Of a DNA stretch of 64,000 nucleotides, positions 45,801-61,481 are shown piece by piece. Source of the stretch: an uncultured Verrucomicrobiae bacterium (GTDB lineage: Bacteria > Verrucomicrobiota > Verrucomicrobiia > Chthoniobacterales > UBA10450); contig CAWDLY010000020.1 of the NCBI GenBank assembly GCA_963803315.1, forward strand, positions 136,426 through 200,425, given 5' to 3'. Both the position numbers and the translations under genes were made by a program. How positions within the stretch are numbered: the stretch's first letter is position 1; each line of letters begins with the position of its first letter. Under the pieces are notes generated by a model. The model worked only from the letters and a program-made list of their open reading frames with translations. It was not told the origin of the DNA and searched no databases.

Positions 45801-46209
45801 GCAAGCGTGCGCTCCCCAGAGTTTCCCCCAGAGTTTTCCCCAGAAGGGCTACTAGCCCGGCACTGAATCGCGGGAGTTCATCCCATCGCACCGCGCATTC
45901 GCCTTTCACTTCGCTCCGGAGATGCGCTTCGGTCAGGAGCGAGCAGAGATTCGCGTAGCCGGTGCGATCCTGCACGAGAACCGGCAAAATACTGCCGTCC
46001 TCTATTGTCAGTTCGCTGCCAACGATCGGCCGCACATTTTGTTCGCGCGCGGCAACAGAAAATCGTTGCGCGCCATATACGCCGTTGCGATCGAGCAACG
46101 CCAGCGCCGGCATTTCCAACTCGGCGGCGCGTTCCGCTAAATGTTCAGGAAAAGATCCGCCACGCAGGAAACTGAAAGCGCTGCACGCATGGAGTTCGAT
46201 GTAAGACAT
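42871..46209 (-). CDS. dnaE2: Error-prone DNA polymerase DnaE2 (with two 50-aa repeat-encoded inserts)
   Basis: Intact 1112-aa ORF with PHP domain (YIELHACSAFSFLRG), pol III alpha core and an OB fold. It lies immediately downstream of the imuB fragment. Confidence 0.9.
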   Translation of the reverse strand: MSYIELHACSAFSFLRGGSFPEHLAERAAELEMPALALLDRNGVYGAQRFSVAAREQNVRPIVGSELTIEDGSILPVLVQDRTGYANLCSLLTEAHLRSEVKGECAVRWDELPRFSAGLVALLGKTLGETLGSARLQRAGRCILQRRTLMELPTSGEMYVAQKSSRRQNVVARTPQACAPQNVQRLIDGFGRKNVYVEIQRHFIRGEEQINRQLINLADHYRLPLLATNGVQYATSNGRNVLDVFTCIREHTHLDAAGKLLSQNSERHLKSDAEMRALFHDRPDAIANTERLAERLTFSLENIGYEFPQFPVPDGHNMNSFLNTIVWFGAQQRYDAISSAVKRQLKEELALIQKLGFSGYFLIVWDIINFCREHNVMVQGRGSAANSAVCYCLGITPVDPVSNHLVFERFLSESRKGWPDIDLDLPSGDRRESVIQEIYRRYGKHGAAMTANVITYRGRSAAREIGKALNFSPSILDRFSHLFANGDFPHTLDLQSQIEQAGLPKAHPRMPAFVNLYRAIYGLPRHLGQHSGGMIICQNKLSSFVPLENASMPGRVVAQWDKDDCEDLGIVKVDLLGLGMMSVMQDAFELCRERNRPLDLAHIPKDDPATFEMMQKADTIGVFQIESRAQMATLPRMKPKCFYDVVIEVAIIRPGPIQGDMVHPYLARRAGREPVTYFDPRLEPILGRTLGVPLFQEQMLKIAMVMADFSGDEAEELRRALSFHRSQERMQKVSVKLRTAMMRKNIAPDVIEKILQAITSFALYGFPESHAISFAILAYGSAYLKVHRAAEFYASLLNNQPMGFYTPATIVKDARRHGTKMEPVCVQRSEWRCTVISDDTVRLGFCVVNGLRQEHVEELVRQRNEKPLCSMDDFRQRTSLSKEELRTLAELGALNCFAEHRRAAMWDVEETWHDDLLGSARLQRAGRCILQRRTFMEPETSGEMCAAQKSSRRQNAFARTPQACAPQKRSSPLLPMTMSERVRADYEGMNLTTGPHPMKLLRDSLPNIWRASDLNQARHKSIVQIAGNVICRQRPGTAKGFVFISLEDETGVSNAIVTPDLFEKLRLVITEEAFLLIEGEVQNSDGVVLIKAQQIRPLAHEQLVGSNSHDFH
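43308..43462. repeat. Palindromic repeat, family D, in-frame in dnaE2 (copy 1)
   Basis: TCTGGGGAGCGCACGCCTGTGGCGTGCGGGCGAAGGCATTCTGCCTTCGC ... GTTGCAGAATGCAACGACCAGCACGCTGCAAGCGTGCGCTCCCCAGA. Translated as GSARLQRAGRCILQRRTFMEPETSGEMCAAQKSSRRQNAFARTPQACAPQ. Confidence 0.8.
45666..45820. repeat. Palindromic repeat, family D, in-frame in dnaE2 (copy 2)
   Basis: Same 155-nt element, about 90% identical by eye, in the same orientation. Translated as GSARLQRAGRCILQRRTLMELPTSGEMYVAQKSSRRQNVVARTPQACAPQ. Confidence 0.8.
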
Positions 46210-46224
46210 ACGCGAGCGACATGG

Positions 46225-47173
46225 CTAATCGTAAATTCCATCGACTTTCCAAGCTTGATCGGCATCGCGATAACAACGGCACAGCGCGCCATTCTCCAAT
46301 TGCAAATCCCATTCGGCGCGCGCCCACAAATTTTCATCCCACCAGTTTCCGGAAGAATGATAAGGTCCGTTCGCGTTTTGCACCTCGCCTTGTAGTTGCG
46401 AACTCTGCAAATGCGCAGGTTCATTTTCCGTCGATAAAACAGACGCCGAAATTGGAGAGCGGAATCGCCGTAGCGCACAAGACGGCATCTGTTGTTCCAC
46501 TGCAGTGACCTCATCGAGCTCCCACGTGAATGGCTCGAGATGAAAACTGTCCGGCCGGTGTGTGTCTTCCAGAACCGGCGTGCCAACACGATCGGCTCCG
46601 AGCAAACCGGTCAAACGCGCCAGAGTTTCGGAAAGTTGCGCCGGATCACGGAGCGCTGTTTCAAAAAGACCGAATTGCTGTTGCCCGGGCCTGGCCGCTT
46701 GCGCCTCGAGCGAGACCGCGGTGATGGGAAACTCCGATCTAAAATTTTCGAGATGCGTATGCAGCATTCGAAACAGCACTTCCACGCTGCGGGTTGGCCT
46801 GCGGAATTTTAAAGCGATGCTCGTAACTTTTTTTGTCGCTAAAAGTGATTTGCAGATTCAGCTCGTTGGCGACGAGATAAAGCGCGCCGAGACGCAGAGA
46901 TATTTGCTCTAAAAAACGGCGCAGAATGAAAAGAAGCGGCTCGACCGTTTCGATTTCGTTTTCGAACTCGAATGTCTCGGCAAACGATTCCACCGGCGGC
47001 ACGAGCTTGAGCAAGCGAACGCATTTGCCATTAGCGCGTTCCCACAAATGCACTGCGGTCGGCCCGAGACGTCGCCCAAGATCGTCTTTATTTAAATTAG
47101 CGAATTGGCCGAGCGTGTGAATTCCCCACTTGTGCAGGATGTCTAGGATATGCTGAACTTCGAGCCGCCTTAT
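46225..47173 (-). pseudogene. imuB: ImuB (Y-family polymerase-like) C-terminal two-thirds, detached from its N-terminus and frameshifted
   Basis: Opens after an in-frame TAG at 47174-47176: IRRLEVQHILDILHKWGIHTLGQFANLNKDDLGRRLGP... (ORF 46739-47053). It continues in ORF 46225-46785 after a shift near 46790. The stop lies 15 nt before dnaE2. Confidence 0.7.
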
Positions 47174-47207
47174 CTATCGATGTCTTAGTGGTCATTGCAA
47201 ATAGCCT

Positions 47208-47283
47208 GTCATCCTGAGCGAAGCGAAGGACCTCGCAAAAATCCCAATGTATTCGTGAGGTCCCTCGCTTCGCTCGGGATGAC
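47208..47283. repeat. Palindromic MITE-like repeat (family A)
   Basis: GTCATCCTGAGCGAAGCGAAGGACCTCGC...GTGAGGTCCCTCGCTTCGCTCGGGATGAC, 35 nt from the imuB break. Confidence 0.8.
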
Positions 47284-47338
47284 ATGTTCGGTATGCAACG
47301 GTAATTTCCGCGTTTCGTTTGCATGGACATGTCTAAGA

Positions 47339-49276
47339 TTAGCGCTTCGGCAGAAGGCGCATCTTCGTTTCCTCTGGCAAAGCGGATGCGCTAATCCAGT
47401 TCGTGGCCGCATTGGCATCCATTTTTAGCCAGTTGCCGAGAAGAGATTCGAGCCGGCTGTTGCGCATTCTTTCATTGCTAATCGTTTGCGCCCATTGCAC
47501 CGCCGCCGCTGGATCAGACCCCATAATTCGCCCGGTATAAGCATTGACGGCGGCATCCCGGGAATCGCCCGCCGGCAAGGTGCCGAGCCACGAGCCAGCC
47601 GCATACGGATCGTTTTGCGCCCATCGATTCATCACGGTTTCAAAAGCGCGTTGCCGCGTTGGGCCTTCGGGAAAAGAGGCGGCCCATTTGCTTGCCGCTT
47701 GCGGATCGTCTCCGGCCCATTGCCAGCCGATCGAGCCCGCCGCACTAGCTTGCGAATCGCCTGCGGGCAATCGCGCTACCAGCCGTGTCGCTTCCGGCAA
47801 ATCGGTCTCCGCGACCGAAGCAATAATGCCGGGCAAAACAGAATCGCGCGTGGCACTCGGCAAACTGCTCACCCACGCGATGGCCGCCTGGGCATCGACT
47901 CGGGCCCATTGCCGCGAAATATTTTCGAGCAAATTATTGCGTCCAGCCAGGTCACTTGAACGCAAAGCAAAATTGGCCGCCGCTTGGGGATCGGCTTGCG
48001 TCCATTGCGAAACAATATTGGTGAGCGCATTTTGCTTGCCCGGACCGTCGGGAAGTTTTTGCGCCCAGGCGATGGCGTTTTGCACATCGCTGCTGGCTAA
48101 TTGCATCGCGATGGCGGTGACGGCTTTCTCCTGCGCTTTCCCCGCGGGCATGCTCGCGACGTACTCGGCGGCCGCCGCCGGTTCCGATTGCACCCAGGTG
48201 GCGAGCACATTGCTCAAGGCATTTTGCTGTGCCTCGTTCGCCGGTAACCTCTGCGTCCAGGCGAGCGCAGCGCGGGGATCAGTTGTGGCCCATTGCCGGG
48301 CAATGTTGGCGACCGCTTGATCCCGCGCGGAACCGGAAGGCAATGTGTCGATCATGGAAGCGGCTTTTTGCGGATCTTTGTTCCCCCAATTGGAAAAAAT
48401 ATTCTGCAGCGCGTTATTCCGACCCTGCCCAGCGGGCAAAGTATTCGCCCAGGCATAAGCCGCCTCCGGATCCTGCTGGGCCCAATTGGAAGCGACCACT
48501 TGCAACGCTGTGTCTCGACTCGATCCGGCTGGCAGTTGTGCGGCGCGTTGGGCGGCCGCAAGTGGATCGTCCGAGGTCCAGCGGGTGAAAATCGGCCAAT
48601 ACAAACCCTGGCGCTTCCGGCCCTCAGGCAGGTTTTGCAAAAAAGCGAGTGCCGCTTGTGGATCTTTCTCCGCCAATGCGGAAACGATTGTTTGCATGGC
48701 CTGATCGCGCTGCGGACCGGGCGGAAGCTGCTCCACCCACGCCATGGCCGCAGTGGTATCGTGCTCGGCCCAACCGGCCACCGCACTCGTTAGGGCCCAA
48801 TTGTGAAATGATCCGGCCGGCAAACCCTGCGCGTAAACGACGGCGGCTTTGGGATCGAGTTCCGCCCAACGGGCGATCACCATCGGCACAACCATGCTTT
48901 TTTCGCGGTCGCGCAGCGTTTCTACGAAAGCGAGAACTTCACGAACATTTTGTTGATCGACCAAATCGATCACTCGATTCAATGCGGCATAGGTGCGTTG
49001 TCGGCCGGAATGCAGTAAGGCCGCTTTGATTTTCGAAATGATCGCGGCGGCGCTTGTGCCGGATGGAACCGCCTCATCAGCATCGCGCTTTGATTCCGCA
49101 ATAGCGACGCTCTCTGGAGGAAGAGAGGGCGCAGGGGAAATGGTGGAAGCCGCTAATGAGTTAACGGATTTTTGCGACGCAGCATTTCTGACCACCGGAA
49201 ATGCATAACGGCCAACTGCGATTCCGATCATGAGCGCGACAAACGCAATGACGGCTGAAGGAACAAAGCGCTTCAC
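47339..49276 (-). CDS. Membrane-anchored protein built of ~15 tandem ~36-aa helical repeats
   Basis: 645 aa with an N-terminal TM segment. The recurring unit is LPxGxxRxxAxxxIxxxWxxxDPxAAxxW (for example LPAGQGRNNALQNIFSNWGNKDPQKAASMIDT). Confidence 0.7.
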   Translation of the reverse strand: MKRFVPSAVIAFVALMIGIAVGRYAFPVVRNAASQKSVNSLAASTISPAPSLPPESVAIAESKRDADEAVPSGTSAAAIISKIKAALLHSGRQRTYAALNRVIDLVDQQNVREVLAFVETLRDREKSMVVPMVIARWAELDPKAAVVYAQGLPAGSFHNWALTSAVAGWAEHDTTAAMAWVEQLPPGPQRDQAMQTIVSALAEKDPQAALAFLQNLPEGRKRQGLYWPIFTRWTSDDPLAAAQRAAQLPAGSSRDTALQVVASNWAQQDPEAAYAWANTLPAGQGRNNALQNIFSNWGNKDPQKAASMIDTLPSGSARDQAVANIARQWATTDPRAALAWTQRLPANEAQQNALSNVLATWVQSEPAAAAEYVASMPAGKAQEKAVTAIAMQLASSDVQNAIAWAQKLPDGPGKQNALTNIVSQWTQADPQAAANFALRSSDLAGRNNLLENISRQWARVDAQAAIAWVSSLPSATRDSVLPGIIASVAETDLPEATRLVARLPAGDSQASAAGSIGWQWAGDDPQAASKWAASFPEGPTRQRAFETVMNRWAQNDPYAAGSWLGTLPAGDSRDAAVNAYTGRIMGSDPAAAVQWAQTISNERMRNSRLESLLGNWLKMDANAATNWISASALPEETKMRLLPKR

Positions 49277-49341
49277 AAGACGAATATGAGCGGGTTTAAT
49301 ATATGTTCAAGTGAACTTAAGCAAATCGGGGTCTCTTTTTT

Positions 49342-49433
49342 GTCATGTCGAGCGAAGTCGAGACATCTCACATTGTTCATCGTCCTCCGTCCCAGCTAAC
49401 AGTTAGAGATTCCTCGACTTCGCTCGGAATGAC
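49342..49433. repeat. Palindromic MITE-like repeat (family B)
   Basis: GTCATGTCGAGCGAAGTCGAGACATCTCAC ... AGAGATTCCTCGACTTCGCTCGGAATGAC. Confidence 0.8.
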
Positions 49434-49596
49434 ATAGATGGCGGTTTCACTGCGATCGCGCACCTCAGATGATTTTTCTCGGACATTTCGGTAAGGCGTC
49501 TAAAAACGCGCGGCCATATGAGTTGTCTCTCGCGGGGCGGGTTTTCGTTCAGGATTTTTCTTGACAATCATTTCTCGCTCTGTCGTTCTCGCTCAC

Positions 49597-52182
49597 ATGA
49601 ACACTTCCTCTCAGTTCGCTCGTTTCCTCTTTCCTCTTTCCTCGTTTCCTCGTTTCCTCGTTTCCTCGTTTCCTCGTTTCCTCGTTTCCTCGTTTCCTCG
49701 TTTCTCCTTTTCATTATCCCGTTCTCGGCTTCCGCGCTACTGATGCGCGATGATGGACCCGAGCCCGTCATTGTCCAAATAAAGGAGTCGTTGCGAACAT
49801 CGGACGATTTGGATAGCCGGCTGGCGGAGTTCGCGTTGCTACGCCAGCAGAGTCGGGTAGATGCCATCAAATGGTGGGCTGGCCGGAAATTATTGGTCAT
49901 GCTTTCTTTCCCAACAAATTTCACCGAGCAACAAGCATTGGCGGTTATCGCCCGGCTGAAACAATCGCCCGCAGTTGAAAAAGTAGTTGCGCAATCGGCC
50001 TTCAATCTCGAGTTCAAGTCAGGTGATTTTTCCCGTGATTACGAAGCCTCTGCGGCAATCCCGGACGCTGCTCGCCGCGGTTTTGATGTGGCCGCCTTTC
50101 TCGTCCGGCAGTCAATTACAGCGCAACCACTGAGCTTCCTCTTCACGTTGCGAATCGACTGATCGTTCGTTGGAAGGATGAATACGTCTGGAAAGCTGCT
50201 CAAACTGGTTTCAGCAGCGCTTCGCCAATTTTAACGCACAACGAGAATGCAACGTCGTTAAAGAATACAGGTATTCCGATCATGATCTGACTCAGCTTCT
50301 TGAATTCGATCCGGTGGAATACTCGGTTCTGAGTCAACTAAGGTATTACCAAGCCTGTGATTGGGTGGATTATGTTCAGCCAGATTATATTTACGAGCCT
50401 CAAAGACGTGCCAAACGATACCTTTTACGGCGGTTACCAACAGGCGAAACTAGCCAAGATCAGTGCTGAGGCCGCGTGGAGCATAACCCATGGAAGCAAG
50501 TCGGTGATTGTTGGCATCCTGGACACAGGTGTGAATACAGCGCATCCGGACTTTATGCCAAATCTCTGGAGCGGACAGAATAATCCTGACCCAAAGAACT
50601 TTACCACTACCCCGCACTCAACAAACATATATGACGGCAATGGACATGGAAGTAATGTCGCTTCAATTGTTGGAGCAAAAGGAAACAACGGGCTTTATTT
50701 GAGCGGCGTTAGTTGGATTGTTTCGCTCATGCATCTCAAGGTCCTGACGGATGGTACTCGACAGGATCCAAGCCATGGGGACGATGATTGGACTATCGAC
50801 GCTATCAACTATGCTCGCACTCATGGTGCTTCTGCCATCAATTTGAGTTATGGCGGTTATGTTATTGATAATTTGTCCGAGACGCGTTGGATCTCGCGCG
50901 ACAGAGCAATGTCGTGGCGGTATGCGCAGCCGGTAATGACGACTCGAACACAGATACCGCGCCATTCGTGCCAGCTGATTACCCGACGGACAATGTAATT
51001 TCGGTGGCGGCGTCCGACCAGTATGATGTGAAATGGTTTCATTCGAATTTCGGCCCAAAGACCGTTGACCTGGCTGCCCCAGGCGTAGCGATATATGGTT
51101 TAAAGCCAACCTATACCGACGATCATTTCGCAAGCAATTACATCGCTTACAGGGAACTTCTCAAGCCGCCCCCCATGTGACTGGCACAATCGCCTTGCTA
51201 AAGACAAAATATGATTGGGAGGATTATCATGGTCTCAGGGATCGCGTGCTCATGGGGACCGATGACGTTACCTCATTTGCGGGATTGACCCGGACGGGAG
51301 GGCGCTTGAACGCGGCTAAGGCGCTGCACCCAGATCAGTGATTCGCAATCTTTCTACGCGTGCTCGGGTAGAGAGCGGTGACCGCATCATGATCGGCGGA
51401 TTCATGATCGGCGGGAGCGGAAGCGGAACATTGAAGGTCATGATTCGCGCCCTCGGACCCAGTATCCAGGGACTGAGCGTTCCCAAACTTAGCGACCCTA
51501 AAATTCGGTTAAACAATGCCTCTGGCCAGATTGCCTCGAACAATAACTGGTAGAAGCCCACACGCAAGAAACGCTCATCATGTCGACCGGACTCGCGCCG
51601 ACCGATGACCGGGAAGCAGCTATGGTGCAGACTTTGCCCCCGGGGCCTTATACCGTATTCGTGGAAATCCAGAGCGGACAACCTGGAGTGGGAGTGTTCG
51701 AAATTTACGAATTGGAGGGCGGCGCAGATGAGCAAACCCGCCTAGTTGATGTCGCCACACGCTGTATCGTCGGAATCAATGAGGAACGAGCGATCGCCGG
51801 CGTAATTATCGGCGACCTCGCCCACCCCAACGACGTGACCCTTCCGAAACGCAGTCTTCTCATACTAGGCAAAGGACCAAGCTTGCTCACCGTTCCGGGG
51901 CGTTTGGCGAACCCTTTCCTCACGCTTAACAATTCGGTCGGCACTCAAATGGCTACGAACGATTCTTGGTCGAGCGCACTGGCGCCGGTTGTCGCGGCCG
52001 CGAACAGTTCCTGGACGACGCAGCCGGCCGCCGTTGATGAACTGGTCCAGGCAGGCTTCAGTCCCACCTCCGCTTCTGAAAGTGCGGTGTGGCCAATTCT
52101 GAAATCAGGTCTCTATACGGCCGTCTTAAGCGGCGTAAGCGGCGGCACTGGTATCGGTTTAATAGAGATGTTCGAATACTGA
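49597..52182 (+). pseudogene. Subtilisin-like (S8) serine peptidase with propeptide and two C-terminal ~110-aa modules, at least 6 frame changes plus an in-frame TAG
   Basis: Parts in order: MNTSSQFARF leader, octamer tract, I9-like propeptide (VIVQIKESL...), Asp (VGILDTGV), His (NGHGSNVASIVGA), Ser (GTSQAAPHVTG at ~51150), then IRNLSTRARVESGDRIMIGGF... modules. Pieces lie in ORFs 49518-50162, 50357-50998, 50887-51180, 51338-51553 and 51580-52182. Confidence 0.65.
49621..49705 (+). repeat. Octanucleotide microsatellite (CGTTTCCT)x7 perfect (49643-49698) with degenerate flanking units
   Basis: Read directly: cgtttcct ctttcct ctttcct (cgtttcct)x7 cgtttct. The unit length is not a multiple of 3. 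Confidence 0.9.
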
Positions 52183-52198
52183 ACGAAGGAGACGGCTT

Positions 52199-53405
52199 AT
52201 GAAACTAAGAATAGTCTATCATCTGTTTGTGAAGGCTGTCGCGCTAAGCGTATGCATGGTTCCCCTCTGTGCGCGCGCTGCCGCAGGCGATCTGTACGTA
52301 GCAGGTCAGGGGTCCGGGGACTTTTTTCAATCGATTTTCAAATTTACTCCTACCGGTACGATGAGTACCTTTGCCTCGTTCGATATCTCCAGTATCCCAG
52401 CAGGAGTTGCCTTTGACACCGCGGGCAATCTCTTTGTCGCCGATGCCGGCACTGGAACAATCTTCAAGTTCACTCCCGCCGGAAGTCGGAGCACATTCGC
52501 ATCGGGAGCGATCAGCCCGATTGGCATCGCCTTCGATGGCTCTGGGTAATCTGTTTGTGGCTGACTCCGCCAGCCATGCGATCCTCAAATTCACACCCAA
52601 TGGAGTAGAAAGCGAGTTCGGTTCCACCGGAATGGGTCCTCCTAGCGGCCTGGCATTTGATAATTCTGGCGATCTTTTCTGTAACCGAACGCTGACTCGC
52701 ATCTTCCGGTTCAAACCAAACGGGACAAAAAGCACCTTCGCCTCCGGACTAAGCGACCCCTCCGGTCTGGCATTTGACCGCGCTGGTAACCTCTTTGTGG
52801 CAGATAACATCAGCGGAACGATCTTCAAATTCACTCCTGCTGGAGTGAAGACCACTTTTGCCTCAGGGCTGGGCAACGTTCACGGGCTGGCCTTTGACAG
52901 CTCGGGCAATCTCTTTGCGACGGCCAGCAGCTTGATTTTGAAATTCACGCCCGATGGAACAAAAACCACCTTCGCCTCCTTGATCGGAAGCTACCTCGCC
53001 TTCGAACCGGTGACCGAAAAGCTGCGCAACATCAGCGCACGTGGATTTGTTCAAACGCGGGACAATGTTTTGATTGCCGGCTTGATCGTTGGCGGCAACG
53101 GCCTGGCCAACAATGCTGTCGTGTTGCGCGCCATCGGGCCTTCTCTTTCACATTCTGGAATCGCTAATCCCCTACAAGATCCAATGCTGGAATTACACAA
53201 CTCCAGCGGCACGATTATCGCATCCAATGACAATTGGCAGGACACGCAACAGGCGCAAATCATGGCGAGCGGCCTTGCACCAAGTGATGCGCATGAATCA
53301 GCAATCTTTGCCGCACTGCCGGCCGGGGCCTACACCGCGATCGTGCGTGGCGTCGATGACACCACGGGCGTAGCTTTGGTCGAAGTTTACAGTCTTATCA
53401 GGTAA
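52199..53405 (+). pseudogene. Secreted NHL/beta-propeller repeat protein with the same C-terminal module as the S8 peptidase, one frameshift
   Basis: Repeats of the form GNLFVAD...GTIFKFTPxGxxSTFASGLxxPxGLAFD. ORFs 52199-52549 and 52371-53405 join at GGG 52544-52546. The C-terminal module is KLRNISARGFVQTRDNVLIAGLIVGG...GAYTAIVRGVDDTTGVALVEVYSL. Confidence 0.65.
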
Positions 53406-53513
53406 ACTGTCGCTGCCGGAGCAAGCATGTTTGCCTAACGAGTAAAGTAGAATCGGTTTCCTGCCGCTTTTCTTTTCTTTGCCACGCGACTGGAAGTCGC
53501 GTCGACATGCACC

Positions 53514-55520
53514 TTAGATGATTTTTTGCGGACATTTCGGCAATGCATTCAGAAACGCGCGTCCGTATGATTTCGTCACGATGCGATTATCTAAAATCAC
53601 CACGATGCCATGATCGCTCTTCGTGCGAATCAACCGTCCGACTCCCTGCCGAAATTTTAGCACCGCTTCCGGCAAAGAATATTCTGTGAACGGATCGCCT
53701 CCGCGCTCCTGCACAAGTTCCAGTTTCGCCTCGATGAGCGGATGGTCGGGAACGGCAAACGGTAGTCGCGTGATGATGACATTGGAAAGCGCCTCGCCGG
53801 GAACATCCACGCCCATCCAGAAACTGTCCGTCCCAAAAAGAACGCTGCGCGGTGTGTTCTTGAACTGTTCAAGCAACCGCCCGCGCGGCGCACCCTGTCC
53901 CTGCACCAGCAGGTTCATTCTGCTTTTCGCAAAAAACGTTTCCATCTCTCCCGCGAGCAATTGCATTCCGCGATAGCTCGTAAAGAGAACAAAAGCGCGG
54001 CCCTCCGTCTGCTCGACAAAATGCGCGACCCATTTCGCGAGCGCTTCGTTGTAACCGGCGTCGCGCGGATCGGGCATTTTCTTTACGACGAACAATTCCA
54101 TCTGCGCGGTGAAATCGAACGGACTTCCCAGTTGCACCGGCTCGGCTTCGCCCGCGCCAATGCGCTCGCGGAAATAAGCGAGATCAGGACGGCCGACAGC
54201 GAGCGTTGCGCTCGTCATGATGCAGGAACAATCATCCCGAAAAAGCATGCGCCGGAGAACGGGCGCGATATCGATCGGCGCGGCATTAAGCGAAAGGAAC
54301 TGCGCCGTTTTTCCGGTGCGCTCGACCCAATAAACGTGGCCCTCCGCGCTCTGCTCCAGGAATGTGACGATGCCAAGCCGCGCATCGCGAACGCGGCGGC
54401 CGAGCTCATTTAGCTCGGCTTTGAGAAATTCATCGTCGTTGCGCCTGACCACCTCGGTGATGCGCGCCTGCAAGCCCATCAAGCGCGCGCTGATCGTATC
54501 GGGCACAAAATCCGGCTCGCGCACGCGCACTTCGCGGCCTTTGCGAAAATCGCAACGCTCCTCGACCGCTTTGAAAAATCTGTCGAGATCGTCCACCAGC
54601 TCCGCCGCCAAAGTCACGCCCGCCGCATCGCGTGTAACGGTAAAGAGACCTTTGCGCGTGCGCGCGTTGTAAAGTCGCTGCACCGTGCTCCGCAGCCCAT
54701 ATTGCGAAACGCCAATCCCGATCTGGCGCGAAGCGACCTGCTCGACCGTATGGGCTTCATCGAAAATAATGAAGTCGTTAGGGAAAAGATAACCGCTTTC
54801 GCGTTCGGCCATTTCCTCGACACCGCCCAGAAGCATGAAGAGCAAGGTGTGATTGATGACGATCACGTCGGCTGCGAGCAATCGTTTGCGGGCTTGCTGG
54901 AAAAAACAGTTCCCAAGCAGGCCGCATGTTTTCGTCGTGCAGATATGCGCTTCGCTACAGATCTGCGTCCACACTTTCGCGTCCGGCTCGATCGACAAAT
55001 CGCTCAGCGAACCATCCTTTGTCGTGCGCGCCCAATCGGCGATGCGTTCGAGTTCCACCTTCTCCGACGTCGTGAAAAGCTCGGTCGCCTGCTGTAATGC
55101 GCGCTCCAGACGCCGCGGACAAAGATAATTTTGCCGGCCTTTCAATAACGCCGCTTCAAATTCGATCGGCAGAATTTTTTTTACGATCGGAATGTCCTTG
55201 TTCAGCAACTGTTCCTGAAGACTGATGGTGTAGGTCGAAATGATGGCCTTTTTCGATTGCTCGATGGCGTAGAGAACCGCCGGCACGAGGTAGGCAATCG
55301 ATTTGCCAACGCCAGTGCCGGCTTCGATGACCAGATGACGCTCTTCTTCCAGAGCGCGGGCCACCGCCCTGGCCATCTCCTGTTGCTCGCGGCGATACTC
55401 GAAATTCTTTGCTTTGGAGAGCAAACCATCGGAGGCGAAGATCGCGCAAACGCGTTCCACGAATTCGGTTCCGAGGTTGTTTTTGAGCGCGATCATAGCG
55501 GCCGAAGCACCAAGCACCAA
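53514..55520 (-). CDS. dinG: DinG-family ATP-dependent DNA helicase
   Basis: 668 aa with EAGTGVGKSIAYLVPA (Walker A), FDEAHT (DEAH box), and the C-terminal helicase motif GVGRLIR. The start may be Met 55496, because the first codons lie in a repeat. Confidence 0.85.
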   Translation of the reverse strand: MVLGASAAMIALKNNLGTEFVERVCAIFASDGLLSKAKNFEYRREQQEMARAVARALEEERHLVIEAGTGVGKSIAYLVPAVLYAIEQSKKAIISTYTISLQEQLLNKDIPIVKKILPIEFEAALLKGRQNYLCPRRLERALQQATELFTTSEKVELERIADWARTTKDGSLSDLSIEPDAKVWTQICSEAHICTTKTCGLLGNCFFQQARKRLLAADVIVINHTLLFMLLGGVEEMAERESGYLFPNDFIIFDEAHTVEQVASRQIGIGVSQYGLRSTVQRLYNARTRKGLFTVTRDAAGVTLAAELVDDLDRFFKAVEERCDFRKGREVRVREPDFVPDTISARLMGLQARITEVVRRNDDEFLKAELNELGRRVRDARLGIVTFLEQSAEGHVYWVERTGKTAQFLSLNAAPIDIAPVLRRMLFRDDCSCIMTSATLAVGRPDLAYFRERIGAGEAEPVQLGSPFDFTAQMELFVVKKMPDPRDAGYNEALAKWVAHFVEQTEGRAFVLFTSYRGMQLLAGEMETFFAKSRMNLLVQGQGAPRGRLLEQFKNTPRSVLFGTDSFWMGVDVPGEALSNVIITRLPFAVPDHPLIEAKLELVQERGGDPFTEYSLPEAVLKFRQGVGRLIRTKSDHGIVVILDNRIVTKSYGRAFLNALPKCPQKII

Positions 55521-55645
55521 AACCCAAATCCCAAGGAAACTCCAATCACGAAATTACAATAGCTTGTCCCCAGCAAGGGTTGGAGCTTGAAGATTGGTGC
55601 TTCTCTGGGGTTTGGTGCTTGGGATTTGGGATTTCGCATCCGCGG
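55505..55645. repeat. Composite inverted repeat built of GGTGCTTGG / GGGATTTGGG sub-units
   Basis: GCACCAAGCACCAAAACCCAAATCCCAAGG ... GGGGTTTGGTGCTTGGGATTTGGGATTTCGC, in the dinG / lptF-G divergent spacer. Confidence 0.6.
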
Positions 55646-55683
55646 CGTGCAGGTTCAACCGGGTTAGGCTAAATTCGCCGCCG

Positions 55684-56832
55684 ATGCGCCTGCTCGACCG
55701 CTACGTACTCCGCAATTTCCTGCAGGCGTACTTCTATTGTATTGCCGCGTTTTTCTCCATCTGGCTCATCTTCGATATCAGCGACAAGATCTCTACCTTT
55801 CTCGACGAGCGTCTTCCGCTCCACCGCGTCCTGCATTATTACCTCACCCAAATCCCGCAGATTTTCGTTATCCTTCTGCCGGTCTCGTTTCTTCTCGGTC
55901 TGCTTTTTTGCCTCGGCCGCATGTCGCGTGCGAACGAAATCGTCTCGATGCTGACCGCGGGCATCAGTCTGCCGCGCGTCATTTTGCCGCTGATCTGCGT
56001 TGGAGTAATCACTTCGGTGGCCATGGCCGCGTTGAATTATTCTCTCGCGCCGCATGCAGATATCGCGCAGCGCGCTTTCGACGAAGAAACACACGCCCGT
56101 CGGGAATACAAAGGAGTGATTGGCCAGATCTTTCGTAATCGGGCCGACAATCGCACCTGGTTTATTCAGTCATTTGTTCCCGGAGAAAATGAATTTCACA
56201 GCGTCCAGGTTCTTCAGCAGGATCAGCATGACGACATCACGCGCGACTATCTCGCGAATAAGGCCATTTATCATCCGGAAGACAAAGCCTGGGAACTGCA
56301 GGGAGTTAAAATCGTCGATTACGACGCTGCTGGAAATATCAAGCGTTCGCGCATTCTGCGATCTTTCGTCATCAAAGATTGGAGTGAGACGCCGTATCGA
56401 TTGGTGAGCGCGAATATGCGCGCGGATTCACTCAGCGTTCCGGAGCTGCGCGAATATTTGCATTTCAATTCCGACTTTCCGCCCGTTTTGCTGGCGCCTT
56501 TCGCCACGCATTTGCAATATCGCCTCGCCCTGCCTTGGAGTTGTCTGGTCGTTGTTTTCATTGCCGCGCCACTTGGCGTCGGCTTTTCGCGGCGCGGGAT
56601 TCTTTCCAGCGTGGCGACTGCGATTCTTCTCGTGTTCGCGATGAATTTTCTTACTCACTTCTTTCTCGCGCTCGGTGAGGGGTATCGCATCTCCGCATGG
56701 GTCGCCGGTTGGACACCGAACATCGCATTCGCCATCATCGGTGCTTATTTATTGTATTTGCGTGCGGGCAATCGTGAAGCGCCGGGACTCCGCTTCGCCT
56801 TTGCCCGCGCCGCTTCTACCCCTAACGAATGA
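55684..56832 (+). CDS. LptF/LptG family permease (YjgP/YjgQ)
   Basis: MRLLDRYVLRNFLQAYFYCIAAFFSIWLIFD..., 6 TM segments with a periplasmic beta-jellyroll insert. ATG 55684 is preferred over the ORF-track start. Confidence 0.8.
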   Translation: MRLLDRYVLRNFLQAYFYCIAAFFSIWLIFDISDKISTFLDERLPLHRVLHYYLTQIPQIFVILLPVSFLLGLLFCLGRMSRANEIVSMLTAGISLPRVILPLICVGVITSVAMAALNYSLAPHADIAQRAFDEETHARREYKGVIGQIFRNRADNRTWFIQSFVPGENEFHSVQVLQQDQHDDITRDYLANKAIYHPEDKAWELQGVKIVDYDAAGNIKRSRILRSFVIKDWSETPYRLVSANMRADSLSVPELREYLHFNSDFPPVLLAPFATHLQYRLALPWSCLVVVFIAAPLGVGFSRRGILSSVATAILLVFAMNFLTHFFLALGEGYRISAWVAGWTPNIAFAIIGAYLLYLRAGNREAPGLRFAFARAASTPNE

Positions 56833-57332
56833 ATCCTTTAGCAAACGAATGGCCGATCAAACATCGCGCGGATGCTTGCGCCGTGACGCAACGGCCGTTC
56901 GTTTCGGGCGAGCAATTTTACACCCTGCTCTTTCGTGAAGGCGACGGTTTCCGGCGCGAAGATTTGAGCGAAGAAGCATGGGCTAATCGCAACGAAAACA
57001 TCCGCCCATTTTCATTCTGGAAAAGCCGCTACGAACCGCCGCCCGCCACGCCGCCGGAACCGATCGCAAAAGAAAGCGCGGAAGATTTTTTGCGCCGGTT
57101 GCTCGGGGAGAAAAATCCGGAACGCGCAAATGCCTGCTACGTGCTGGCCGTGATGCTCGAGCGCAAGCGCGTTCTCAAGCAGATAAAAAGCGAAGCGGCG
57201 GACGATGGTCGCGTCTTGATTTACGAACACAACAAGACAGGCGATGTTTTCATCGTGCCCGACCCGCAGTTGCGACTCGATGAAATCGAGAAAGTGCAGA
57301 CTGAAGTGGGCGCACTGCTGCGAAACGCCTAA
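56829..57332 (+). CDS. Conserved hypothetical protein
   Basis: 167 aa with ATGA overlap to the lptF/G-like gene. No family was recognised. Confidence 0.55.
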   Translation: MNPLANEWPIKHRADACAVTQRPFVSGEQFYTLLFREGDGFRREDLSEEAWANRNENIRPFSFWKSRYEPPPATPPEPIAKESAEDFLRRLLGEKNPERANACYVLAVMLERKRVLKQIKSEAADDGRVLIYEHNKTGDVFIVPDPQLRLDEIEKVQTEVGALLRNA

Positions 57333-57345
57333 CGAATCATTGCCA

Positions 57346-58374
57346 ATGACGCCTGCTCTTCCATGGTTTTCCGAAGGAAACTTCCCGCTCTACCTCGCTC
57401 CCATGGCGGGTGTGTCGGACAAGATTTTCCGGCAAATCTGCAAATCATACGGCGCCGACGTTCTCGTGACCGAATTCGTTTCGGCCGAAGGCGTCTTTCG
57501 GCGTAACGAACGCACGCGAGAATATCTCGACTTCGATGAGATCGAGCGCCCCATCGGCGTCCAACTTTTCGGCGCCAATGCCGCGCACATGGCGGAAGCG
57601 GCGCGTCACGTCGTCGATTGGGTTCGTCCGGATTTTATCGATCTCAATTTCGGTTGCCCGGTTAACAAAGTCGTCGCCAAGAATGGCGGCTCAGCTTTGC
57701 TGAAAGATTGTCCGACACTCGCCGCTGTCGCCGAGGCGGTCGTGCGCGCGGTCGCTCCGCTTCCTGTGACTGCGAAAATTCGCATCGGTTGGGACGCGGA
57801 TTCAATCAATGCGCCGCGCGTCGGCCAGCTTTTGGAAGAGTTGGGCATTGCTGCGATCGCGGTGCACGGACGCACCCGCGCGCAAGGTTATTCTGGCGCA
57901 GCGGATTGGAACGTCATCGGCGAGGTCGCTTCAGCGGTTTCGATTCCGGTGATCGGAAACGGCGATCTCACTACTGCGGCAATCGTTGCCGATCGACGTG
58001 CGAGAACCGGAATCGCCGGCGCGATGCTCGGCCGCGCCGCGATGAATGCGCCCTGGATTTTTCAGCAAATCAAAACTTATTTCACGACGAGCGAAGTGCC
58101 GCCGGCACCCGAACCCGCGAAGCGATGGGAATTAATCAGACGTCATTGCCAGCTGGCCGTTCAGGAATGGGGCGCGGAAGAACCAGCGATTCGCTCGATG
58201 CGCGCCCGCTTGATGGCGTACTCCAAAGGTTTTCCGGAAGGCAAAAGTTTGCGCGAAAAATTTCAGCACGTTTCAACGTTATCTGAGATCGCGCACATCG
58301 CCGACGAGCACCTATCAAGGAGCGGCAGTTTCCAAACTGCCGACAACGGCGCTTTGGAAAGCGCCGCTCCTTGA
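57346..58374 (+). CDS. dusB: tRNA-dihydrouridine synthase
   Basis: LYLAPMAGVSDKIFRQICKSYGADVLVTEFVSAEG, DLNFGCPVNKV, AIAVHGRTRAQGYSG. The last ~18 codons and the stop lie in repeat family E. Confidence 0.85.
   Translation: MTPALPWFSEGNFPLYLAPMAGVSDKIFRQICKSYGADVLVTEFVSAEGVFRRNERTREYLDFDEIERPIGVQLFGANAAHMAEAARHVVDWVRPDFIDLNFGCPVNKVVAKNGGSALLKDCPTLAAVAEAVVRAVAPLPVTAKIRIGWDADSINAPRVGQLLEELGIAAIAVHGRTRAQGYSGAADWNVIGEVASAVSIPVIGNGDLTTAAIVADRRARTGIAGAMLGRAAMNAPWIFQQIKTYFTTSEVPPAPEPAKRWELIRRHCQLAVQEWGAEEPAIRSMRARLMAYSKGFPEGKSLREKFQHVSTLSEIAHIADEHLSRSGSFQTADNGALESAAP
58317..58372. repeat. Palindromic repeat, family E (second copy)
   Basis: AAGGAGCGGCAGTTTCCAAACTGCCG..CGGCGCTTTGGAAAGCGCCGCTCCTT, the inverse orientation of 1453-1515. 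Confidence 0.7.
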
Positions 58375-58404
58375 CCGCTGCTCGTTAACGCGAGATTTTT
58401 CGTC

Positions 58405-58782
58405 GTGGAAAGCTCGCCAGCGAACGGACAGATCAATTACAAGATCGGCAACGAACGCCTGATCAAGGTAACGGAAAATGCCTCGCGTAAATTGGTCTCA
58501 CTGCTGGAGAAACAAGGTCGCGCTCAAGGCGCACTGCGCGTCGCCGTGATCGGTGGCGGCTGTTCGGGACTGCAATACAAAATGGACCTGGTCGACGGAC
58601 CCGCTAATCGCGACATCCTGGTTCAATCCGAAAATGTGCGCGTGGTGGTCGATCCAAAAAGCGCGCTTTTCGTGAGCGGTTCGCTTCTCGATTACAGCGA
58701 AGATCTGCAAAAAGGCGGATTCAAAGTCACGAATCCGAACGCAGTCGCGCACTGCTCTTGCGGCGAAAGCTTCGCCGCATGA
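58405..58782 (+). CDS. Iron-sulfur cluster insertion protein (HesB/IscA/ErpA family)
   Basis: VIGGGCSGLQYKMDL ... NPNAVAHCSCGESFAA, the C-terminal CxC signature. Confidence 0.8.
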   Translation: MESSPANGQINYKIGNERLIKVTENASRKLVSLLEKQGRAQGALRVAVIGGGCSGLQYKMDLVDGPANRDILVQSENVRVVVDPKSALFVSGSLLDYSEDLQKGGFKVTNPNAVAHCSCGESFAA

Positions 58783-59357
58783 CGGATTTTTTCGCGCTCT
58801 TCTCCCAACCGCGGCAGCCCTGGATCGAGCGCGGCGTATTGAAAGAAAGACATCATCAGCTCACGCGTCTTGCGCATCCGGACGTGCGCGGTCCGCATGC
58901 CGACCAGAAATTCGAAGACGTCAACGAAGGGTATCGGATCCTTTCCGATCCGAAATTGCGCATCGAACATCTTCTCGCGCTGGAAGGTTCCGGAAATCTC
59001 GCGAGAGATCGACCCCTTCCTGCTGATTTGCAGGAACTTTTTCTGCGCATCGGAACACTGCGCCAGGCAATGCAGCGAGTGTTCACGGCGCTTGGCGATG
59101 TCACGAGCGCCCTCAAGCTTTCTCTCGCAAAAAACGACCTGCTGCAGTTACAAAAGCAAACGAACGAAATGCTGGAGGAGTTGAATCGTTCTTACGACCG
59201 CTGTCTCAAAGAGCTTCGAAATTCGAACGAAGTTTGGAAACGTGCGCGGCAACAGGCCATCGCACAGCTACAATCTTTACGCGATCGCATTGCCTACCTC
59301 GCACGCTGGATCGCGCAGTTGAAGGAAATGGAGTTGCAGCTCAAGCTGCGCGGCTAA
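58779..59357 (+). CDS. J-domain co-chaperone (HscB-like)
   Basis: ATGA overlap with the preceding gene. FFALF...LKERHHQLTRLAHPDV (HPD motif), followed by a helical C-terminal domain. Confidence 0.65.
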   Translation: MTDFFALFSQPRQPWIERGVLKERHHQLTRLAHPDVRGPHADQKFEDVNEGYRILSDPKLRIEHLLALEGSGNLARDRPLPADLQELFLRIGTLRQAMQRVFTALGDVTSALKLSLAKNDLLQLQKQTNEMLEELNRSYDRCLKELRNSNEVWKRARQQAIAQLQSLRDRIAYLARWIAQLKEMELQLKLRG

Positions 59358-59366
59358 CGAGCAATC

Positions 59367-59380
59367 TGTTCATTTGAACT
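59367..59380. promoter_or_regulatory. Candidate LexA box (TGTTC-ATTT-GAACT)
   Basis: Lies 35 nt upstream of the lexA ATG. It fits the TGTTC-N4-GAACA palindrome that I recall being reported for Verrucomicrobia LexA. Confidence 0.6.
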
Positions 59381-59414
59381 TGCAAATCGCCTGGTCGTTA
59401 GCGAAACTCAGTTC

Positions 59415-60050
59415 ATGCTGACTGAGCGACAACGCAACGTCCTCGAATTCATTCAAAGCGAGCAGCGCGAAAAAGGGATTACGCCGAGCACACGCGAAAT
59501 CCAAACTCATTTCGGTCTGGCGAGCCAGACTTCGGTGATGCAATACCTCGCGGTTTTGGAGCGCAAAGGATTTATCGATCGCCACGCTCGTAAAGCGCGC
59601 GCGCTCATCACGCCGGTGCAGAAGGTTCGCATCACCGATATTCCAATTTACGGGCAGATCCCTGCCGGCATGGCGACGTTGACCGAGCAAACGATCGAAG
59701 GCCACGTTTCCCTTGATGCGCGCTCGGTAAATGCATCGAAAAATGGCCGCACTTTCGCGTTGCGCGTGCGAGGCGACTCGATGATCGACGCGCATATTCT
59801 TGATGGCGACATCGTCATCCTGGAAGACCGCAAAGACGTCCGGAATGGCGATATCGTCGCGGCGTTGATCGATGGCGAGACAACATTGAAGCGGTATGTA
59901 ACGGAACACGGGCGGCCTTATTTGAAGGCGGAGAATCCGTTGTATCCGGATCTGATCCCCGCGCGCGAATTGCGGGTGCAGGGTGTCATGGTTTCTCTGG
60001 TGCGGAAACAAGCAGCCGGGCAGGGCGGACAAAAGCGAAAACGCATCTAA
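59415..60050 (+). CDS. lexA: LexA repressor
   Basis: 211 aa with N-terminal wHTH (TPSTREIQTHFGLASQTSVMQYLAVLERKGFI) and the S24 peptidase part (GDSMIDAHILDGDIV...TLKRY). Confidence 0.9.
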   Translation: MLTERQRNVLEFIQSEQREKGITPSTREIQTHFGLASQTSVMQYLAVLERKGFIDRHARKARALITPVQKVRITDIPIYGQIPAGMATLTEQTIEGHVSLDARSVNASKNGRTFALRVRGDSMIDAHILDGDIVILEDRKDVRNGDIVAALIDGETTLKRYVTEHGRPYLKAENPLYPDLIPARELRVQGVMVSLVRKQAAGQGGQKRKRI

Positions 60051-60063
60051 GTTCGTTTGAACA
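60050..60063. promoter_or_regulatory. Candidate LexA box (AGTTC-GTTT-GAACA)
   Basis: Lies in the 25-nt lexA-imuA spacer and has the same half-sites and N4 spacing. Confidence 0.6.
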
Positions 60064-60075
60064 TATCTCAACCTC

Positions 60076-60834
60076 GTGCCATCCTCGGGGATGGAAGCGG
60101 GTTTCAGATTGGAGGGCGCCGCGTCCGCCGGTCGGACGGACTCGTCCCGTGGCGAGCTGTCGGCGCCAGATTTGAAACACGACAGCCCGCGTTCCTCCAA
60201 TAAACTCATCGATCTGCGGAAACTTCTCGCGGAGCGGTATCCGCATTCTTCGCCGATTCCTGCCAGCCGGTTAAAAACGAATATCGCGGCGCTCGATCGA
60301 GCGAGCGAAGGCGGACTGCCCAAAAACGCCATTACCGAAATCACCAGTCCTCATGCCAGCGGTGGAAGTGCGTCGCTGATCCATAAGCTTTTGCGGACAG
60401 CACATCGCGATCGTTATTTCCTGGCGCTTATTGATGGTCGGGATTCGTTCGATCCCGAGTCCATCGGAAATCCATGTTTGCGAAATCTGCTCTGGATTCG
60501 CTGCCATAATGCGATGGAAGCGGTGAAGGCAGCCGACTTGCTTTTGCGCGATGGAAATTTTCCTCTCGTTATTCTCGATCTGGTGCTGAACGCAGCGGAT
60601 GAATTGCGAAAAATTCCGCAGACTAGCTGGTATCGCCTGCAACGATTAGTAGAGCCGGTGGCGACGGCATTTCTGGTTCTGACGCGCCGAAGCATGGTCA
60701 GCAGCGCGCAATGGAAACTGACACTCGATAATTACTGGACGCTGGAACATCTGGAGAATCGTGACGTTGTTTCCGAACTAAAAATTCGCGTGCAACGCGT
60801 TCACGGCACGCGGGAAATCGCGGAAATGCGCTGA
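60076..60834 (+). CDS. imuA: ImuA (RecA-fold SOS mutagenesis cassette protein)
   Basis: 252 aa: GLPKNAITEITSPHASGGSASLIHKLL...FLALIDGRDSFDPES...LVILDL. Positioned between lexA and imuB. Confidence 0.75.
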   Translation: MPSSGMEAGFRLEGAASAGRTDSSRGELSAPDLKHDSPRSSNKLIDLRKLLAERYPHSSPIPASRLKTNIAALDRASEGGLPKNAITEITSPHASGGSASLIHKLLRTAHRDRYFLALIDGRDSFDPESIGNPCLRNLLWIRCHNAMEAVKAADLLLRDGNFPLVILDLVLNAADELRKIPQTSWYRLQRLVEPVATAFLVLTRRSMVSSAQWKLTLDNYWTLEHLENRDVVSELKIRVQRVHGTREIAEMR

Positions 60835-61355
60835 TGTTTGCCACGATTTATTTGCCGAACTTTTATCTGCAAGCAGTGCTGCGCCACCAAACGGAGCTGG
60901 GCATCCAACCGGTTGCCTTGCTCAACGCCGAGGATGCGAAACCAGTGATCTTGCAACTCAATCCGGCGGCAGAAAGCGCGGGCGTCTGCAAAGGAATGAC
61001 GCCCAGCCAGGGATTGGCGCGCTGTTTACATTTGGTTGTGAAAGTTCGAAGCCGGACTCAGGAAAAATTGCTCGATGAAATTTTGCTGCAACATGCCTTC
61101 ATGCTTGCGCCTTATGTGGAAGCAACCGCTCCCGGGATTTGCACCGTCGAATTTACCGATAACCGCAATCTGACCGACAAAGTCTCGCGCGTAATCGAGC
61201 GCCTGATCGACGCTGACGTGAATGCACAAGCAGGCATCGCCAGCACGCCCGATACGAGCTTGCTCGCCGCGCATCTGGCGAAACCGGTTTTGCAAATCGA
61301 CGACGCGAAACAATTTCTCGCGCCGCTCCCGATCGAAACGCTCGCGATCACTTAG
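60834..61355 (+). pseudogene. imuB: ImuB N-terminal third (truncated)
   Basis: MFATIYLPNFYLQAVLRH...GVCKGMTPSQGLARC...APGICTVEF...FLAPLPIETLAIT followed by a stop. It ends 27 nt before a family-B repeat. The continuation is at 47173-46225 on the other strand. Confidence 0.7.
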
Positions 61356-61382
61356 GAGCATCTGACGCTGTGGAAAAGCTCT

Positions 61383-61470
61383 GTCATTCCAAGCGCAGTC
61401 GAGGAATCTCTCATTGGTATTACCCGGCGGAATAAACAGTAAGAGATGTCTCGACTTTGCTCGACATGAC
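61383..61470. repeat. Palindromic MITE-like repeat (family B, inverse orientation)
   Basis: GTCATTCCAAGCGCAGTCGAGGAATCTCTC ... GAGATGTCTCGACTTTGCTCGACATGAC. Confidence 0.8.
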
Positions 61471-61481
61471 AGAACCCAGTT

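Follow-up and report, generated by a model that had tools for sequence, protein, structure and literature searches.

In bacteria devoid of Pol V, the main machinery of SOS mutagenesis is organised around ImuB as its hub, and the catalytically dead polymerase core of ImuB is not known to have an established role. The canonical mutasome is encoded by the LexA-regulated cassette (lexA-)imuA-imuB-dnaE2 in Caulobacter, Pseudomonas and Myxococcus, and by imuA'-imuB/dnaE2 in mycobacteria, where the mutasome needs both the clamp-binding motif and the C-terminal region in order to work (PMC10421592). A cassette of this kind, in which imuB is cut in two, lies in a window of 64,000 nucleotides, that is, the whole stretch of DNA analysed here (positions 136,426 to 200,425 of contig CAWDLY010000020.1, assembly GCA_963803315.1), from an uncultured Verrucomicrobiae bacterium of the order Chthoniobacterales (genome G000 in the comparisons below). 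It comprises the same four genes as the canonical cassette, in the same order once an inversion is undone, and resembles it in its apparently dead Y-family ImuB, its clamp-binding-type motif, its ImuB C-terminal region and its operator-like LexA sites (PMC10421592). By contrast with the canonical cassette, ImuB is encoded here as two polypeptides, cut inside the polymerase core and borne by two divergent LexA-boxed units, and the unit that carries the second part of imuB and dnaE2 is headed by a gene for a 645-residue repeat protein. The evidence presented below indicates that ImuB probably works as two polypeptides, which I hereafter call the N piece and the C piece, after an ancient inversion that is fixed throughout the family, both units being under predicted LexA control.

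Two described arrangements come closest. The DnaE2X and DnaE2B systems, with iPolY and a stand-alone ImuB-C, have been called "a split ImuB" (Timinskas and Venclovas, PMC6511836; NAR 2026, PMC12926913), and there too a pair of proteins found alongside DnaE2 share the functions of ImuB between them. Their cut lies past a complete Y-family core (palm, fingers, thumb and little finger), whereas here it falls within the core, so that no single protein of the locus combines a complete core with a separate ImuB-C as partner; moreover, the halves found here are plainly orthologous to the one-piece ImuB of sister families. The 2026 survey covered complete genomes only and dropped fragments shorter than 200 residues (PMC12926913), and an N piece of 173 residues would therefore have been discarded. 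The mycobacterial split cassette, with imuA'-imuB and dnaE2 at separate loci, likewise consists of two separately transcribed, damage-inducible units (PMC6511836), but its split falls between genes and not inside imuB. The literature search found no paper on an ImuB cut at the palm/thumb junction, nor on an ImuB cut in Verrucomicrobia. The two-piece ImuB appears to be a fixed, LexA-controlled form of the known mutasome.

The open reading frame (ORF) map and the translations place imuB in two parts on opposite strands, lexA-imuA-N piece on the plus strand (59415-61355) and the remainder of imuB with dnaE2 on the minus strand (47330-42871). This arrangement had been proposed in an earlier note made from the letters of the stretch, and its gene positions agree with the ORF map, the translations and the profile searches. 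The features of the locus are the following.

42871-46209, minus strand: dnaE2, 1112 residues (NF004225 error-prone polymerase, 1189 bits); its start lies 15 nt past the C-piece stop.
46225-47330, minus strand: ImuB C piece, in three frames in this genome (its first segment matches the middle of Pol IV models; alignment with congeners).
47207-47284: palindromic repeat A, with 33-nt arms, an in-frame insertion at the 5' end of the C-piece frame.
47339-49276, minus strand: g47339m, the 645-residue repeat protein (ORF map; same position in 7 of 9 relatives).
49304-49317: putative LexA box TGTTCAAGTGAACT, 28 nt ahead of g47339m.
49330-53500: private insert of about 4.2 kb, with ORFs that have no counterpart in nine relatives.
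53514-55520, minus strand: DinG/YoaA-type DNA repair helicase (NF053712, 9.5e-177), within the inverted segment.
59367-59380: putative LexA box TGTTCATTTGAACT, 35 nt ahead of lexA.
59415-60050, plus strand: lexA, 211 residues (TIGR00498, 6.7e-52, 176 bits; PF01726 and PF00717).
60050-60063: putative LexA box AGTTCGTTTGAACA, in the lexA-imuA spacer.
60076-60834, plus strand: imuA, 252 residues, RecA-like (NF033429 ImuA, 1.1e-07; weak RecA matches).
60834-61355, plus strand: ImuB N piece, 173 residues (PF00817 IMS, 1.8e-10).
About 61380-61475: palindromic repeat B, past the N-piece stop; at this site in this genome only.

Each ImuB half is therefore encoded next to a partner, the N piece beside imuA, whose stop overlaps the N-piece ATG and which is syntenic in all the relatives compared, and the C piece beside dnaE2. 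The stop of g47339m lies 8 nt ahead of the original C-piece ATG, which makes it the first gene of a g47339m-imuBC-dnaE2 unit; profile searches gave no family match for it. No second imuB was found in the assembly (34 contigs, 85% complete), in which the only related gene is a DinB-like paralogue of 365 residues on contig C26. An exact-protein look-up of DnaE2 returned no record.

The site of the cut was located by comparison with the full-length ImuB of outgroups, which reads ...FLAPLPLSDLEP up to the cut and DSALEMILGGWGVRTLG... beyond it. The N piece runs to LPIETLAI, the C piece takes up the sequence again at EVQHILDILHKWGIHTLG, and no residues are missing at the cut: as had been suggested, the pieces once adjoined each other in a single ancestral ImuB. 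The C-terminus of the N piece is ...FLAPLPIETLAIT, which includes LPIETLAIT and is followed directly by the stop at 61355, and in all relatives the stop comes 1-4 codons past LPIETLAI. A profile built from 30 family N pieces aligns to residues 13-179 of E. coli Pol IV, which puts the cut at the palm/thumb junction of the Y-family core, at the equivalent of Pol IV residue 179. This family profile alone reached Pol IV; phmmer searches against PDB sequences returned no match for the N piece or the C piece. The N piece contains the Y-family palm/fingers domain (PF00817), and the catalytic residues D103/E104 of Pol IV (SLDEA) stand opposite non-acidic residues in the N profile, in an alignment that is weak (E = 2e-4). 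This is moderate evidence that the N piece, which comprises a Y-family palm and fingers, is catalytically dead, as expected for ImuB. The C piece holds the thumb, the little finger, the beta-clamp motif QQQFGLFE and the ImuB C-terminal region; it aligns over its full length to the full-length ImuB of sister families with 40-49% identity, and Pol IV profiles match at positions of about 190-340. The motif, in the form QQQF(G/S)LFE, is conserved in C pieces and is predicted to be of the clamp-binding type.

A survey of the family, a group of abundant soil Verrucomicrobia that belongs to the Chthoniobacterales (Verrucomicrobiota) and includes Candidatus Udaeobacter, found imuB in 144 of 151 genomes and in 36 of 36 genera. 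In genomes that yielded both halves, residues 1 to about 173 gave one match (N) and residues of about 172-484 another (C), and none of the matches spanned the junction in one open frame. In the search with the N piece, family matches end at residue 171-172 in open frames of 172-311 residues, as against frames of 492-549 residues in other families. In all 144 family genomes that have imuB, the protein is encoded by two genes and not as one polypeptide. By contrast, the order survey gave one frame across the whole of ImuB, 484-695 residues long, in about 55 genomes of seven other families (f5-f10 and f16), and five of those families have colinear lexA-imuA-imuB-dnaE2 loci. As the earlier note had it, a single inversion links the present order to this ancestral colinear one. 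Nine relatives from six genera share an identical gene order: gnd / dnaE2(-) / imuB-C(-) / [645-aa repeat protein(-)] / dinG-yoaA helicase(-) / lptFG(+) ... hscB-like(+) / lexA(+) / imuA(+) / imuB-N(+) / two conserved genes(-).

These data bear on two explanations of the split that the window by itself would suggest. One is that misassembly at the repeats produced an artificial inversion, since both junctions do have repeats nearby and the sequence comes from a metagenome-assembled genome (MAG). The same arrangement is however present in more than 140 independent assemblies, obtained by different groups and methods and including the single-contig genome G121, and relatives without repeats at the junctions share it, so that misassembly is refuted by the relatives and can practically be dismissed. 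The other is that a recent inversion, perhaps triggered by the repeats, broke imuB and left the cassette to decay. Each junction has a repeat no more than about 30 nt away, and in this genome the frame of the C piece is broken twice and dnaE2 has received two repeat insertions, all of which would fit recent damage. As an account of the split it is already refuted by the family-wide distribution (144 genomes, 36 genera), and it is further opposed by a ratio of non-synonymous to synonymous substitution (dN/dS) near 0.1 for both halves, by the absence of the repeats from these sites in congeners and by the conservation of the LexA box ahead of the C-piece unit; a recent break is very unlikely. 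The description of imuB as broken in the earlier note is accurate insofar as the cut is real, and does not stand insofar as it implies recent damage.

The position of the repeats themselves deserves closer attention. Both are real, at 47207-47284 (A) and about 61380-61475 (B), and both are dispersed, each with about 150-190 BLAST matches genome-wide (187 for B). Repeat A is present at the same site in congeners G004 and G001 and absent there in G002 and G003, while repeat B is absent from its site in all four congeners G001-G004. The repeats must therefore have arrived long after the inversion. Repeats A and B are later, lineage-specific insertions that had no part in the break, and the proposal of repeat-associated breakage fails for the same reason. 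A short similarity between the sequence past the N-piece stop and that ahead of the C-piece start (GATCACTTAGGAGCATC and GACCACTAAGACATCGA, respectively) was considered as a recombination core and dropped, as relatives do not share it.

Within the genus, pairwise Nei-Gojobori dN/dS lay at 0.08-0.15 in the N piece and at 0.10-0.17 in the C piece, compared to 0.12-0.22 for imuA, 0.06-0.11 for dnaE2 and 0.02-0.03 for lexA, and the N piece has 40 invariant columns among 30 family members. Both ImuB halves are under purifying selection. Furthermore, lexA, imuA, both imuB pieces and dnaE2 are jointly absent from three genomes that are 92-95% complete. These results must be set against the hypothesis that only the C piece serves the mutasome, in the manner of a stand-alone ImuB-C, the N piece being retained in a role that is new or unrelated, or through its translational coupling with imuA. 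Stand-alone ImuB-C systems do exist (PMC6511836, PMC12926913), and the partner-binding elements known from mycobacteria are all in the C part (PMC10421592). However, the C piece retains a thumb and a little finger, which make little sense without a palm, and the N piece is conserved as much as the C piece, stays in the LexA-boxed lexA-imuA unit and was lost along with the C piece and dnaE2 in the three genomes just mentioned. A mutasome served by the C piece only is therefore improbable.

The regulation of the two units was assessed from a TGTTC-N4-GAAC(A/T) palindrome that occurs at three sites in the cassette (59367, 60050 and 49304). The LexA motif of Verrucomicrobia is reportedly TGTTC-N4-GAACA (Erill et al. 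2016), and the cassette palindrome corresponds to that motif. The box ahead of lexA is present in 8 of 10 genomes compared and the box in the lexA-imuA spacer in 9 of 10. The third box lies ahead of g47339m in G001-G004 and G006, and a perfect box stands directly ahead of the C piece in G009, G011 and G016. Genome-wide, 7 such sites were found, versus 5 in reversed sequence, and three of them are in the cassette and one is ahead of a PA0069-type radical SAM gene; it is therefore position that carries weight, and not count. The three boxes are putative LexA operators, to which LexA would bind. The third was probably gained after the inversion, because a pre-inversion site would fall between two convergent gene ends. 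It had been claimed that dnaE2, once separated from lexA, lacks a LexA-controlled promoter. The claim does not survive, since the box at 49304-49317 heads the g47339m-imuBC-dnaE2 unit and is kept in relatives either there or directly ahead of the C piece; predicted SOS control of dnaE2 thus appears not to have been lost. Scans for sigma-70 promoters and terminators around the junctions performed no better than on shuffled sequence. The protein g47339m may accompany the mutasome as an SOS-regulated partner that has not been described before. Genes for repeat proteins with weak similarity to it adjoin the intact cassette in two genomes of another family (G201 and G271).

The following course of events would account for these observations. 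In the ancestor of the family, a single inversion of about 8-10 kb would have cut imuB between the palm and thumb domains, leaving lexA-imuA-imuB(N) and imuB(C)-dnaE2 in opposite orientations. This state would then have been fixed, the N piece gaining a stop 1-4 codons past the cut, and the C piece a new start codon together with a short basic leader. With the C-piece/dnaE2 unit provided with its own LexA operator, cleavage of LexA after DNA damage would switch on both units, and the two polypeptides would associate non-covalently and rebuild the ImuB hub, which connects the beta clamp with DnaE2 and ImuA.

That the pieces act in trans is what their spacing calls for. The C part usually lies about 8-10 kb off, on the opposite strand, but in some members of the family the pieces are 20 kb to 1.3 Mb apart, at times on the same strand, and must therefore act in trans, with no rejoining by re-inversion. 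Rejoining of the halves, whether by programmed DNA inversion, by RNA trans-splicing or by a split intein, nevertheless has a precedent in cyanobacteria. There dnaE is split into dnaE-n and dnaE-c, whose products a natural split intein joins, and as with imuB here a polymerase-family gene is retained as two distant genes on opposite strands. The cyanobacterial genes carry intein halves, whereas the cut ends here carry none: the 1-4 residues past the N motif and the C leader of about 10-20 residues are too short for them. In addition, a search of the 40-64 kb region against Rfam, introns included, gave no family match, no recombinase is encoded in the interval between the imuB pieces, and distances of 55 kb to 1.3 Mb or same-strand pairs recur in several genomes. 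Rejoining is accordingly highly improbable.

In this genome the C piece raises a question of its own. Its frame starts with LEVQHILDILHKWGIHTLGQF at about 47173, changes near 46790 and reaches its stop at 46225. Alignment with four congeners revealed two insertions of 1 nt, one at about 47163 and one at about 46797, in an otherwise undamaged C piece. The first, overlooked in the earlier note, cuts the C piece off from ATG 47330 and ATG 47195, the start codons that belong to it, which are in the same frame. The second had been reported there as an additional frameshift at about 46790; it is real, although as a sign of decay it is indistinguishable from the raised frame-break background of the assembly. 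In the relatives the C piece is a single open frame that measures 300-420 residues between stops and has an ATG or GTG of its own (326 residues from the ATG in G002), and its leader is short and mostly basic, for instance MSKRTKSKTSIDKTA-EVQ in G002. Repeat A lies in frame between ATG 47330 and ATG 47195, and would lengthen the leader by about 40 residues if translation begins at the first of them.

Are these insertions real? If they are, the C piece is a recent pseudogene in this species only, and the mutasome has been lost here and kept in the family. The two insertions are 370 nt apart and neither is in a long homopolymer, the rest of the 24-kb syntenic block is unbroken in this genome, and C-piece dN/dS is slightly higher in pairs that include G000 (0.14-0.17 versus 0.10-0.16), all of which speaks for a real loss. 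On the other hand, comparison with congener G002 over about 172 kb of coding sequence on this contig (C20, from about 110 to 345 kb, within which the window occupies 136426-200425) gave 22 frame-break sites, against 10 in the reverse test on G002, a census that is noisy in view of those 10 sites and supports a raised background only. Other pairs of frame-break sites in this genome are likewise spaced by about 220-640 nt. Completeness of 85% in only 34 large contigs, together with the frame breaks, looks like a long-read MAG with residual indels, and once the frames are corrected the C piece has no stop and no excess divergence. On balance, the two breaks are somewhat likelier to be assembly errors than a recent loss, which keeps a substantial chance of its own. 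The assembly probably carries indel errors, and caution is warranted for any frameshift in it. Broken frames are also found in relatives: in G004 (locus L012), imuA and a neighbouring gene of 513 residues are in two or three frames, and in G001 (locus L014) the alignment of dnaE2 falls into five pieces. Either the assemblies of these relatives contain errors too, or the genes are decaying locally.

Several points weigh against the proposal that two ImuB polypeptides cooperate under LexA control. The C piece is out of frame twice here, and the system may be dead in this genome. Binding of the N piece to the C piece and expression of both polypeptides are predicted from sequence data, and the putative operators were assigned from their position, their conservation and the reported motif. 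An AlphaFold2 model of the N piece alone, computed from 30 family sequences, has a predicted local distance difference test score (pLDDT) of 57, too poor for a fold search. Finally, outgroups share no flanking genes with the family, so that the second breakpoint cannot be reconstructed.

Two-polypeptide ImuB has several implications. A natural cut that has been kept for so long, with both halves under selection, argues that ImuB requires its palm/fingers part and that this part can work as a chain by itself. The cut also provides a ready-made split site for biochemistry. For annotation it is a warning, because the N piece, at 173 residues, is too short to pass common length filters and genes of this kind will probably be labelled pseudogenes by annotation pipelines; for these reasons, reports may underestimate how far Udaeobacter-type soil bacteria are capable of SOS mutagenesis. 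A bolder, rather unlikely idea is that the fission is put to use as a two-key gate, the N half being kept with lexA-imuA and the half that would bind the clamp and DnaE2 with dnaE2 and the membrane-anchored repeat protein. If so, the mutasome would assemble only when two separately controlled transcripts coincide, and one of the most abundant soil lineages would have a gate on mutagenesis; the inactive polymerase core of ImuB would then also be shown to play an essential part that a separate chain, acting in trans, can provide.

Later insertions have modified the locus in this genome. A private insert, which contains pieces of an S8 peptidase and an NHL-repeat protein and in which the guanine-plus-cytosine content dips to 0.50, widens the gap between the imuB pieces from about 10 kb to 14 kb. 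It sits between the LexA box and dinG/yoaA, whereas in nine relatives dinG abuts the LexA box. The earlier description of dnaE2 as intact holds in that the gene is one open frame, and must be qualified in that the frame includes two repeat-derived in-frame inserts, at about 43308-43462 and about 45666-45820. These are palindromic, about 150 nt long and about 50 residues each; one is in a loop of the PHP domain and the other in a linker ahead of the OB domain. In relatives the same two loops have different repeat-derived inserts or none, so that these loops are hot spots tolerant of repeat insertion, similar to those of the Rickettsia palindromic elements.

Two further loci of this genome have a LexA connection. 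A second LexA/S24-like C-terminal segment is present at 8540-8888 of contig C19, in two overlapping frames, with 57-59% identity to LexA residues 95-210. A LexA-type box, TGTTCATATGAACT, is found at position 31730 of contig C23, ahead of a radical SAM gene of the PA0069 family (NF033668, 1.7e-54), the end of which looks out of frame in the assembly. SplB-type genes are among the core SOS genes (PMC8565304).

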